Positions 16,506 through 19,347 of a DNA stretch of 40,643 nt are shown piece after piece. Position 1 is the first letter of the stretch. Each line of letters begins with the position of its first letter. Position numbers and translations under genes: made by a program. The DNA is from a virus (lineage: Duplodnaviria; Caudoviricetes). The notes below the pieces were generated by a model. It did not search any database. It was not told where the DNA came from and was given only the letters and a program-made list of their open reading frames with translations. The stretch spans positions 1 to 40,643 of the IMG/VR virus record IMGVR_UViG_3300048856_000121. One strand, 5' to 3'.

Positions 16506-16611
16506 CGCTGTGTCAGGAAAGACCCGCGCGGACGGCCAGCGCACAAGTTCTGGCTACCCCTTCGCGAGGGATTTGGTTAACTACGCGCAATAGTTGAGGA
16601 GAATACGTCCA

Positions 16612-17232
16612 ATGCGCTTCTGGGCCTTGCTAGCCGCCCTGTTCTTGGCGGGATGTGCCTCAGGTGGACGAGAAACCTGCCCAGGATGCGGCAGAGGGGA
16701 CGCCGCTGCCCTTCAGGCGAAAACTGAAGCTTATGACCGGCAACGAGAAGCAGACCGCCAAGCCTACATCTACCGTGATCTTTCTCCTGCCGAGCGGACT
16801 AAACGCACCCGCGAGGACGAACTCCTGGAACGCGCCCTCACCAGTTCCCCCGACTACATGGCGGCCCTACGCCGCGCAGCCGTTGCCAATGTTGATGCTG
16901 AAGAGCCCCCTGCTCCAGCAGGCCGTCGCAACCGCGCCGCCGAGGCGCAGGCCCGAGAGCAGCGCATTACTGCCGAAGAGGCCAGACTGTCGGATGCTGT
17001 GGAGCTTCGCCGCCGCTCACGCCTGGCGCAGCAAGGTCAGAACGATCGCGCAGCCCGTCTGAATGCTGCCCGCGCTGCATGTGACGCCCAGGCCTCGTCT
17101 GTTGGGGCCGGCATCTACACGCCATACTCGCATCGCCAGGGTGTCCTTGGGTCAGCATTAACAGGCGCGATTGCTTCGGCGTCCGCTGAAGAGCAGGCTC
17201 GGGCCGGGTGCTACCGGGCATATGGCCTGTAG
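16612..17232 (+). CDS. Lipoprotein moron
   Basis: GAGGAG SD; signal peptide MRFWALLAALFLAG|C with LAGC lipobox; antisense to the tail operon. Confidence 0.8.
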   Translation: MRFWALLAALFLAGCASGGRETCPGCGRGDAAALQAKTEAYDRQREADRQAYIYRDLSPAERTKRTREDELLERALTSSPDYMAALRRAAVANVDAEEPPAPAGRRNRAAEAQAREQRITAEEARLSDAVELRRRSRLAQQGQNDRAARLNAARAACDAQASSVGAGIYTPYSHRQGVLGSALTGAIASASAEEQARAGCYRAYGL

Positions 17233-17235
17233 GGA

Positions 17236-17541
17236 CTAACCCTCCCCCCTCTCCAGCTTCTCCAGCGTCGCGTTCACGCCCGCCAGCAGCCGGAAGGCGT
17301 CGAAGGTCCAGGCGGCCTGATCGTTCAGGCCACCGCCGTCCGGCCAGTTGGTCGTGACGCCGTAGCCGTCGCGGCTGCTGATCCACAGGCGGGCGAGGTC
17401 CATGTAGGCGGAAGGGGTGGTCAGGCGCGGATTTGCTTCGACTTCTTCGCCCGCGACGAGGTAGCGCCCGCCGCCGAGCGGCTGTTCCGGCCCGGCGTAA
17501 CCCTCGGGGTCCCGGAGGACTGCGAGGGCGTTGCGGAGTTT
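17236..17541 (-). CDS. Tail assembly chaperone T segment, expressed as a G-T fusion by -1 frameshift
   Basis: Open -1 frame from the GGGAAAC site: KLRNALAVLRDPEG...WPDGGGLNDQAAWTFDAF...EG*; absent from the ORF track. Confidence 0.85.
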   Translation of the reverse strand, partial: KLRNALAVLRDPEGYAGPEQPLGGGRYLVAGEEVEANPRLTTPSAYMDLARLWISSRDGYGVTTNWPDGGGLNDQAAWTFDAFRLLAGVNATLEKLERGEG

Positions 17542-18074
17542 CCCTCCGCACCCTTGCCCGGCTGCGCCATCTCGTGGGCCTTCCAGCCGACCATGATGAG
17601 TTCGGCCTCCGGCACGGCGTCGAGCAGATCCTCCCGCACCGTCTCATTCCGACGCTCGAAGGGTGGCAGGCTATCGCCCGACCAGCCGCGCACGGCGTAG
17701 AGGAAGAACACGAAGGGAATGGCTGCCATGTGCCGGTTCCGGCGAGCCAGCAGGGCCGTATAGGCGGGGGAGGACTGGCAGGCCGTCTCGATCTTCGCCG
17801 CCTTAGCCATGATCTTCTTATCGTCCGGCGCGGCCTGGGCCTCGTCCAGGATCGCCAGCAGGTCGTCCAGATCGGCGGGGCCCGCCTCGCGCAGCACGTC
17901 GCGCATGGCGGCATACATGGTGGCCTGGTCGGGATAGACGCCGCCCTCGGCAATGACCGCGGCGCGGGCACGCATGCGCTCCCGCACGGTCAGAGGGGCG
18001 ATGGTGTAGGTGCGCGGGGAGCCGGGAGGGGTGAATTCCTCCACGTCGCGCTTGCTCAGGATGGGGGTGTCCAT
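17421..18074 (-). CDS. Tail assembly chaperone G
   Basis: Between tail tube and TMP; start MDTPILS with AGAGG SD; ...EGNSATPSQSS C-terminus. Confidence 0.85.
   Translation of the reverse strand: MDTPILSKRDVEEFTPPGSPRTYTIAPLTVRERMRARAAVIAEGGVYPDQATMYAAMRDVLREAGPADLDDLLAILDEAQAAPDDKKIMAKAAKIETACQSSPAYTALLARRNRHMAAIPFVFFLYAVRGWSGDSLPPFERRNETVREDLLDAVPEAELIMVGWKAHEMAQPGKGAEGNSATPSQSSGTPRVTPGRNSRSAAGATSSRAKKSKQIRA
17538..17544 (-). other. Programmed -1 ribosomal frameshift slippery site G GGA AAC
   Basis: X XXY YYZ heptamer in the correct phase of G; the -1 frame is open to 17236. Confidence 0.85.
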
Positions 18075-18078
18075 GGTG

Positions 18079-18167
18079 CCTCTTGTCGGAGAGGTTGAAA
18101 GGTGGAGGCGGGCCCCGACAGACCCGCCTCCTTCGCGCGCGCGAGGCGCTTCCGCTGTCGGGCGGAA
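18079..18167 (-). promoter_or_regulatory. Three-hairpin structured RNA element with complementary loops, covering the chaperone SD
   Basis: H1 TTCCGC-CCGACA-GCGGAA; H2 GGAGGCGGG-TCTGTCGGGG-CCCGCCTCC; H3 CCTCT-CCGACA-AGAGG. Confidence 0.7.
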
Positions 18168-18171
18168 CGGG

Positions 18172-19347
18172 TCAGAAGCAGGCCAGGTAGCCGCCGCTGT
18201 CGGCGCCATCGGCCGCATAGGTGATCTGGTTGGTGCTCAGGCCATCGCGGTTGCCGGGGTTGTTCTGAGTGACCCGTGCAACGGGCACAGTGAGGGCAAA
18301 TCGATTGCCTGGGGTGGAACCGATAATCGCCTGCAGAGACATTCCGACACCTTGCCGGAAATTGTTGAACAGGCTCACGTACGAGCTGGCTGAGACGTAC
18401 GGGTCCAGGGAGCCGCCGATGGCGCGGCTGACCGGCATGGCGGGGTCATAGCCCTCGGGCGCCTCGGGGTTGTCCGGCAGGATCGTGCTGACGCCCAGGT
18501 TCAGGGTCAGCGTGCGCACTTGCGCCGTCTGGCGGTTCAACTGGCACAGGCCATCCACGAAGCGCGGCGGGGTCGGCCGCACGATGCTGAGCGCGCCGGC
18601 CGGAAGCGCCGCGGTGTCCGGATCGGCCGCGAGCTGTGCCATGCCCTGGAACTGTATCTGGCCGATGCCGCCGGTGGTGAGCGTGATGGTCGCCGTGCCG
18701 ACAAAGCCGGTCAGGCGCCAGCGCAGGCCGTCCTTGAACAGGTAGATGGTCGCGGTCTTGTAGACCGTATCGTCCGAGGTGGGCGCGTAGAGGACGTGCG
18801 CCGGGATCTGGAAGCTGTCGGTGGTGCCCAGAGGCGGGGTGAAGGTGCGCCCCAGGCTGGCCACGCGGCCGGCCGTGTAGTCCACCACGGCATCGCGGCC
18901 GGTGCGGCCCGTGCCCGTCACCAGCATCGGCATGCCGCGATAAAGCTGCGCGGTGGACGCAAAGGGCGCTGCCAGGGTGGCACTGGTGGCCGTGCCGGCC
19001 GTCGCCGCCGTGGGGGCGCCGATGGAGGCGGCCGTCACCGTCTCCTGCATCGTGGCGCAGCGCAGCAGCCGGGCGAAGTTGGGCGCCGTACCCGGCAGCC
19101 CGGAGCCGCGCAGCACGGCCGTCAGCGTCACGTTGGCCCGTAGGCCGCCGACGATGCCCGGCGCATTGTCGAGCGACCCGGTGAATTCGTTGTTGGGCGT
19201 GACGCTCTGGTCCCAGGCCACCTCGCAGGTGCCGCCGAACCAGTCGTCGGCCGCCGGCGTGGAGCCGCCAAAGGCATCGGTGCCGGAGGTGGTTTCGATC
19301 TTCACCGCCACGGCGGAGAAGCGGTCACGAACGAGCTTCGCGCACAT
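18172..19347 (-). CDS. Major tail tube protein
   Basis: VAVKIETTSGTDA, P.FARLLRCATMQET, TATIYLFKDG, G.TPGNRF motifs; upstream of the chaperone. Confidence 0.88.
   Translation of the reverse strand: MCAKLVRDRFSAVAVKIETTSGTDAFGGSTPAADDWFGGTCEVAWDQSVTPNNEFTGSLDNAPGIVGGLRANVTLTAVLRGSGLPGTAPNFARLLRCATMQETVTAASIGAPTAATAGTATSATLAAPFASTAQLYRGMPMLVTGTGRTGRDAVVDYTAGRVASLGRTFTPPLGTTDSFQIPAHVLYAPTSDDTVYKTATIYLFKDGLRWRLTGFVGTATITLTTGGIGQIQFQGMAQLAADPDTAALPAGALSIVRPTPPRFVDGLCQLNRQTAQVRTLTLNLGVSTILPDNPEAPEGYDPAMPVSRAIGGSLDPYVSASSYVSLFNNFRQGVGMSLQAIIGSTPGNRFALTVPVARVTQNNPGNRDGLSTNQITYAADGADSGGYLACF

Follow-up and report, generated by a model that had tools for sequence, protein, structure and literature searches.

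Results

Gene order and RNA hairpins at the tube-chaperone junction

The window, which is the whole 40.6-kb stretch of viral DNA analysed here (40,643 nucleotides), encodes on its minus strand a lambda-like morphogenesis operon with terminase, portal, protease-capsid, tube, chaperone and tape measure genes. The tail tube gene (18172..19347, minus strand) encodes a protein of 391 aa that was assigned to phrog_290 (E 6e-6). It also matched the Pfam family Phage_tube_2 (PF18906) with an E value of 6e-6 and 26.6 bits, slightly below the cut-off of 27, and PF18906 was present in several homologs of this tube. Named relatives of the tube are found in Roseomonas, Falsiroseomonas and Rhodospirillales. 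The gene downstream, encoding tail assembly chaperone G (217 aa; 17421..18074, minus strand), had no PHROG or Pfam match and was recognized from its place between the tube and tape measure genes and from a conserved slippery site. At this site, the heptamer GGGAAAC (17538..17544, minus strand), a -1 frameshift would lead into the 102-codon T reading frame (17236..17544, minus strand, -1 frame) and yield the GT fusion. Across 106 homologous chaperone loci, AAAAAAC or GGGAAAC was in frame at 103 and T lay in the -1 frame at 105, which bears out an earlier preliminary description of the downstream gene as a true G/GT chaperone. Between GT and the next tail gene, on the opposite strand, lies a 212-aa gene with a lipoprotein-like N-terminus (16594-17232, plus strand); it had no PHROG match and is likely a moron.

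The tube stop codon (18172-18174) and the G start codon (18072-18074) are separated by a spacer of 97 nt that, on the minus strand, folds into three hairpins, and the coordinates and loops first reported for them were confirmed. H1 (18150..18167, minus strand) is a 6-bp hairpin with the loop CCGACA (18156-18161) and a putative decoy for the H2 loop; as had been reported, it begins 4 nt past the tube stop. H2 (18104..18131, minus strand) is long and stable, at about -25 kcal/mol, and presents UGUCGG (18115-18120) as a candidate repressor loop. H3 (18079..18094, minus strand) is a weak 5-bp hairpin of -4.7 kcal/mol with the loop CCGACA (18084-18089), and its 3' arm is the Shine-Dalgarno sequence AGAGG (18079-18083), so that the ribosome-binding site of G does lie within a stem as proposed. 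A perfect 12-nt palindrome, TCGCGCGCGCGA (P; 18133..18144, minus strand), abuts the 5' side of H2 and is a predicted site of RNA-RNA dimerisation. A fourth CCGACA is present in the last tube codons (18198-18203, minus strand), in a small possible hairpin that is not kept in L003.

Folding of the entire region gave a modest advantage over shuffled sequences (z -1.97; 8/200), and CCGACA occurs 35 times in the window against 26 expected. Because the folding advantage is modest and the loop word is no rarity, the argument against chance is built on homologs. In the window, this element was the single SD-linked match of a de novo triple-hairpin finder. Judged by comparison with its homologs, the set of three hairpins is real and conserved.

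Conservation and covariation of stems and loops

The element is about 90 bases long and variable in sequence, and it occurs in many phages of alphaproteobacteria ahead of tail-chaperone genes and some other late genes. Viral sequences were searched with a pattern that named the three loops and the Shine-Dalgarno sequence and required no stems. All three stems were present in 73 of the 111 distinct viral matches listed, compared with 2 real elements among the 95 matches listed for a control pattern of the same design with another loop triple. In metagenomes, 22 of the 106 pattern matches listed passed. Pooling and removal of near-copies left at least 99 elements, of which one or two (L262, L440) are possibly misassigned; the sampling of loop variants centred on a single tube family and on the phrog_5707 family. 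The H2 stem measured 10-12 bp in 88 of 99 pooled elements, and the median folding energy of H3 across elements was -4.2 kcal/mol. A covariance-model scan of 151 class-wide genomes, with 26 candidates scored in each, gave two matches and was too insensitive for an estimate of prevalence; the second match, L412, is degenerate and doubtful. Comparison of the element with cultured phages by blastn returned the source record alone.

Stem covariation was assessed in a 54-sequence alignment (A2) whose rows had been picked for having stems. Both-side changes were found at 20 of 21 pairs and 93.6% of cells pair. These changes affected all 5 modelled pairs of H1 and 12/12 pairs of H2, and in H3 98% of cells were paired. 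The loops changed together as well. Seven loop triples were recovered (CCGACA, CCCACA, CCCGAA, CCGCCA, CGCACA, CGACCA and CCUGAC), each matched by its own H2; H2 and H3 pair at 6/6 positions in all seven families and in none of the 42 cross-family combinations. The loop complementarity that had been noted in the window is thus conserved in homologs and covaries. The H1 loop covaries with H2, G-U wobbles included, and a few contacts are reduced to 5/6 pairs (L153 and L408 at H1; MinM1 at H3). CCGACA was strongly dominant among the loop sequences of the matches listed, and the close kin L555 and L564 are one triple change apart. Among 1134 stem positions, G-U outnumbered A-C on the sense strand by 78 to 12, which argues that the structure is formed by RNA. 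Since the sequences are related, these counts overstate the number of independent events. Pairing did not extend by strand invasion beyond the 6-bp loop match, as the H2 flanks paired with the H1 and H3 flanks no better than with those of swapped partners.

Several known kinds of element were considered. The Rfam search called for in the preliminary description was run on the window and 8 homolog loci and gave no match at the gathering threshold to any Rfam 15 family, among them riboswitches, C4 and phage cis-elements (best E 0.59, far below threshold). An intrinsic terminator was rejected: 96 of 99 elements have at most three T in the 8 nt after H2, and H2 went unflagged in the window. Read-through or bypass by way of the open frame at 17421-18218 was rejected since the frame relation is not conserved; spacer lengths are spread over the three phases (19/22/21), and just 16 of 62 cases have an open downstream frame. 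A host REP-like repeat was likewise rejected, as no chromosomal repeat family was found. The host-genome pattern search was positive in 6 of 244 genomes, none of which had the H2 stem, and the covariance model gave 0-2 matches per genome in 5 carriers, with one copy in the window.

A conserved palindrome adjoins H2

P of at least 10 nt was present in 71 of the 99 non-redundant pooled elements, compared with 4.5% of dinucleotide shuffles; among flanking 24-mers from the neighbouring DNA, 2-3% held a palindrome of this size. The sequence of P varied greatly, with 31 different central 10-mers among the pooled elements and 10 different self-complementary 4-mers at its centre, and its position was nearly fixed, with the centre 17-21 nt upstream of the H2 loop in 72 of 76 elements. 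By comparison across elements, therefore, self-complementarity of P at a fixed distance from H2 is under selection. As a hairpin P is marginal (median -0.8 kcal/mol) and as a duplex it is strong (-19.5 kcal/mol). Cofolding of two copies gained -16.9 kcal/mol, compared with -7.2 kcal/mol for shuffled linkers, and the real linker was better in 73 of 77 elements. In 5 of 77 elements P has a central UG, for which a tandem wobble in an RNA duplex is the sole way of pairing. Correlations among the lengths of H2, P and the linkers did not separate the models, and the negative ones arose partly from the calling of stem ends.

The P of the window can itself fold as a weak hairpin (-3.6 kcal/mol). In a minority of elements (L219, L240, L260, L266 and others), a closed hairpin capped by a UUCG- or GNRA-type loop takes the place of P; these four retain all three matching loops, and dimerisation through P is therefore not possible for them. 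Where a 4-nt loop could be scored, it was self-complementary in 67 of 88 elements. Since a hairpin loop needs no self-complementarity, selection is best read as acting on an intermolecular duplex. P thus points to the pairing of two mRNA molecules, and the pattern of conservation makes selection for dimerisation probable.

Genomic context and mobility of the element

Among 133 distinct sequences that follow related tube genes, 33 carry the element; the finder had given 34 matches at tube loci, of which one (L082) was removed by eye as spurious. At most tube loci that lack the element, the spacer is 8-50 nt long or a gene has been inserted. A tree of 122 tubes required at least 10 gains or losses of the element, 7 of them forced by strong branches, which indicates that the element is optional and mobile. 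Within the L035-L071 clade, in which the tubes are near-identical, the CCGACA and CGCACA loop families are interleaved on the tree (L043 is sister to L044), and this suggests cassette exchange by recombination. An orphan H3 is duplicated at a gene insertion in L231 (minus strand, some 460 nt beyond the element) and L549, and L544 and L561 carry H1-H3 fusions from which P and H2 are deleted. These arrangements suggest that the repeated loops serve as recombination points for the gain or loss of accessory genes.

The genes upstream of the element encode tubes (phrog_290, phrog_158) or phrog_5707 proteins, the latter located behind the major capsid gene. Those downstream encode tail chaperones (phrog_313, phrog_8233), methyltransferase-domain proteins, nucleotide-sugar epimerases, small inserts and Acb3. 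The element is therefore not specific to tube-chaperone spacers, for it also precedes capsid-region enzymes and Acb3. The CBASS inhibitor Acb3 (PF25187, E 5e-80) lies directly behind the element in L165 (686-1492, minus strand), outside any tail module; homologs of this gene are present in L168, L170 and L254, and a look-alike in L233. Given this position, an anti-defence gene may be dosed by the element RNA.

In 57 of 92 elements, H1 starts at most 12 nt after the stop codon of a long ORF. The others comprise 10 that lie farther from a stop, 5 without flank and 20 without a long ORF nearby; by eye, 9 of these 20 follow a shorter or truncated ORF, and two others of the 20, those of L166 and L468, are preceded by a terminator-like hairpin with a U-run. 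Coupling to translation of the tube, as put forward in the preliminary description, is thus possible for most elements, which lie within 12 nt of a stop, and is not required, as some have no nearby upstream stop and two follow a terminator-like hairpin.

Two cultured phages carry the element. In Azospirillum phage Cd it lies between gp40 and gp41. In phage MinM1 (L164; ON981384, deposited as Synechococcus phage MinM1), whose tube is 43% identical to that of the window, the element has stayed beside the chaperone after a 2.2-kb insertion and abuts the stop codon of a foreign gene; an Arc/antirepressor cassette lies between tube and chaperone. The element is otherwise found in phages of alphaproteobacteria, and the actual host of MinM1 may be a co-cultured bacterium. 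The full element was not present in Bradyrhizobium phage ppBdUSDA122-1 or EBPR siphovirus 3.

Other structured spacers were seen at the same junctions. Just behind a phrog_5707-like gene, L568, L569, L571 and L583 have another conserved structured motif that begins GCGGCTAGGGT, contains CCCGAA and occupies the place of the element. At the same phrog_5707-like junction, the spacers of L570, L573-L575, L578-L580, L584-L588 and L593-L595 have a TTGACA-like hexamer directly after the stop, then a long hairpin with a terminal U-run before the Shine-Dalgarno sequence. The freshwater relatives L039, L122-L124 and L127 have an unrelated, hairpin-rich tube-G spacer of 50-95 nt.

Geometry of the loop contacts and the role of H2

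The reach of the loop contacts was assessed with a rod-and-chain model of 65 elements, a crude one that ignores excluded volume and real kink angles. In this model, a kiss between H2 and H3 within one molecule, with both stems intact, was feasible in 0-2% of elements. As the linker between H2 and H3 is mostly 0-4 nt, such an intramolecular kiss is out of reach in the model, and the contact must therefore either join two molecules as a kiss or be a pseudoknot for which H3 has to open first. Both were feasible in the same model: the H-type pseudoknot with H3 opened fits one molecule in 94% of elements, and the intact-stem kiss across P in a dimer was reachable in 88-98% and had the highest effective concentration of the five arrangements modelled. 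Two readings thus remain from geometry. The kiss between H1 and H2 was reachable in 34-77% of elements as monomers and across P in 63-88% as dimers, and because it remains reachable in the dimer, geometry does not settle polarity. The competition of H1 and H3 for H2 that was proposed earlier is thus not supported as a kiss of intact H2 and H3 stems in one molecule.

The sequence around the start codon bears on polarity. An extra CCGAC lies between the Shine-Dalgarno sequence and the start codon in 14 of 98 elements, where shuffles gave a mean of 0.74, and in 11 it overlaps the AUG; none of 77 tube loci without the element has such a copy. Azospirillum phage Cd repeats its own variant of the target word over the AUG. 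Since the target of H2 is repeated over the start codon, H2 is probably a repressor. Four of 101 H3-type hairpins lie before genes in the absence of H2, and one of these genes is a tail chaperone (L231), so that H3 alone seems not to block translation, an argument drawn from 4 loci of unknown fitness. A hairpin as weak as H3, with its median of -4.2 kcal/mol, is insufficient to block initiation by itself. The weakness of H3, the additional sites over the AUG and the orphan H3 hairpins together favour H2 as the repressor.

Discussion

Comparative evidence identifies the element as a new four-part cis-RNA (H1, P, H2 and H3) and argues strongly for its self-dimerisation. Its three stems, the covarying loop triple, the Shine-Dalgarno sequence held in H3 and the excess of G-U on the sense strand are all established by comparison of homologs. 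The preliminary interpretation is supported in part; it missed the conserved palindrome, the most unusual part of the element.

We propose, tentatively and with a probability of roughly 0.4 for the mechanism as a whole, that the element is a concentration-sensing translation brake that works through an mRNA dimer. In a lone transcript, H1 would be made first and bind the loop of H2 over the single-stranded linker. H3, weak at about -4 kcal/mol, would then admit ribosomes, and the downstream gene would be translated. When late mRNA is abundant, P may form a duplex of 10-14 bp between two molecules. This duplex would act as a strut that brings the H2 of one molecule within reach of the H3 of its partner; reciprocal kisses between the H2 and H3 loops of the two molecules would then lock the Shine-Dalgarno sequence of each. 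Melting of H1 by a ribosome that finishes the upstream gene would release H2 and so favour the locked state. The predicted outcome is negative feedback on chaperone G/GT at high levels of late mRNA, such that G/GT, a capsid-region enzyme or Acb3 would no longer increase in parallel with the abundant product of the structural gene upstream. We lean slightly towards the broader view that the element is a protein-free mRNA concentration sensor, in which a two-fold symmetric P dimer and swapped kissing loops flip the next ribosome-binding site, and that it is a portable cassette which decouples the dose or timing of chaperones, capsid-modifying enzymes and Acb3 from those of structural genes.

A different polarity, near the idea of the preliminary description, would have H2 activate translation, as in the repY-repZ genes of IncI and IncB plasmids. 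H1 would hold the H2 loop while H3 shuts off the Shine-Dalgarno sequence; once a terminating ribosome melts H1, or the P dimer removes it, the H2 loop would be free to form an H-type pseudoknot with CCGACA in an opened H3, which would expose the Shine-Dalgarno sequence. With P as the trigger, this arrangement would act as a threshold switch, the gene being turned on when the mRNA level is high. The pseudoknot loop is long enough in nearly all of the modelled elements, and the known repY-repZ precedent works in this way, as described in excerpts of PMC4705826. The placement of H1 close behind a stop codon in most elements, including those that follow shorter or truncated ORFs, is consistent with activation by coupling, as is the MinM1 element, which moved with the chaperone and still abuts a stop; such tight spacing would however be expected in compact phage genomes in any case, and some elements have no upstream stop or, in L166 and L468, lie behind a terminator-like hairpin. 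Against activation further stand the weakness of H3, which would hardly need such help to open, the extra target sites over the AUG, which would be harmful to an activator, and the occurrence of H3 without H2 ahead of a chaperone. We therefore regard an activating pseudoknot as unlikely.

The element could instead control the amount of mRNA, with H2, the H1 kiss and the P duplex forming a 3' barrier, a processing site or an attenuator behind which upstream mRNA accumulates; fragments left by trimming could then use P to act in trans. Phages commonly reduce expression after abundant structural genes, and the element does follow such genes, namely the tube or the phrog_5707 gene behind the major capsid gene. 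H2 is also very stable. However, H2 is not followed by a U-run in nearly all elements, the terminator scan of the window did not flag it, and the matching loop and the Shine-Dalgarno sequence in H3 would be left unexplained, which makes this account improbable.

That no RNA dimer forms at all, P being an intramolecular stacking helix or the hairpins being protein-binding or DNA-level sites, could be argued from the tetraloop-closed variants that substitute for P, from the weak hairpin available to the P of the window and from a dominance of CCGACA such as a protein site might show, but it is more improbable still, given the needless self-complementarity of most 4-nt loops, a P sequence that varies freely as a protein site would not, loops that change in complementary triples and the sense-strand excess of G-U.

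If the dimer brake is correct, it would represent a new class of riboregulator, one that has its own transcript as ligand. The excerpted accounts in PMC7357161 and PMC12990946 describe natural RNA dimers as rarely reported, and the balance of G and GT is essential according to the excerpted PMC4493119. The brake would explain how unequal amounts of tube and chaperone arise from one late operon. The element is short, has 7 natural loop families without full cross-pairing and 31 palindromes, and occurs in cultured phages (Azospirillum phage Cd and MinM1), which makes it directly testable and a useful part for synthetic biology.

Comparison with known systems

No description of the element was found in the literature searched, most of it outside subscription journals, including the main texts of Weinberg 2017 and Fremin 2023; the excerpts seen of a 2026 review (PMC12990946) and of a 2026 preprint likewise do not describe it. 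Fremin et al. 2023 (PMC10690425) list ten unnamed candidate RNAs before Phage_TAC genes. Three of these precede Phage_TAC_4, two of them predicted terminators of 46-51 nt and one of 87 nt, in phages of Comamonadaceae. These candidates resemble the element in being structured RNAs at the same gene junction, before a tail chaperone; they may overlap with it, and it is possible that the element has a prior, unnamed listing there or elsewhere.

Palindrome-driven RNA homodimers include HIV-1 DIS, the oskar 3' UTR and the hatchet ribozyme (excerpts of PMC7357161), and further OLE, ARRPOF and HYER (excerpts of PMC12990946). The element shares with them a GC-rich self-complementary segment, and P of MinM1 is centred on GUGCAC, the DIS palindrome, as given in PMC7357161. 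In contrast to the element, none of those described in these excerpts is a phage or bacterial intercistronic element that gates a ribosome-binding site (PMC7357161, PMC12990946), and the palindrome here is an unlooped linker of 10-14 nt, not an apical loop. As in DIS-like systems, the self-complementary segment is selected and exposed, the dimer itself being a prediction from cofolding. Our literature search found no mRNA of bacteria or phages in which translation is controlled through pairing with a second copy of the same mRNA.

The P1 c4 antisense system has an X - X' - X layout within one phage transcript. In phage P4, seqA, the CI RNA and seqC are arranged in the same way, with targets upstream and downstream of the central complementary unit, according to excerpts of PMC4825925. 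The element likewise has a central complementary unit with targets on both sides. Unlike it, P4 CI is an antisense RNA that is released by processing and serves immunity control by terminating transcription (excerpts of PMC4825925), whereas here the units are hexaloop hairpins in a stretch of about 90 nt, in late operons and with a palindrome. The neighbours of the element are tube and chaperone, capsid-region and accessory genes, not an immunity or antirepressor operon.

The closest parallel is repY-repZ of ColIb-P9 and of IncI-alpha, IncB and IncL-M plasmids. In the excerpted account (PMC4705826), two partners compete for one loop, a stem hides the Shine-Dalgarno sequence directly 3' of one of these partners, and an upstream stop codon lies beside the switch. 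The element, too, has a loop complementary to a site just 5' of a stem-held Shine-Dalgarno sequence. In the plasmids, as excerpted from the same source, the competitor is a separate antisense RNA (Inc), whereas here it is the cis hairpin H1; the terminating ribosome there opens the Shine-Dalgarno stem itself (PMC4705826), whereas the stop codon here is about 80 nt from H3 and abuts H1. The element further differs in its setting among phage late genes, in its self-complementary palindrome and in that no antisense gene is evident. By analogy, the element would work most like the ColIb-P9 repZ switch, in which one loop serves two partners and the Shine-Dalgarno sequence is hidden.
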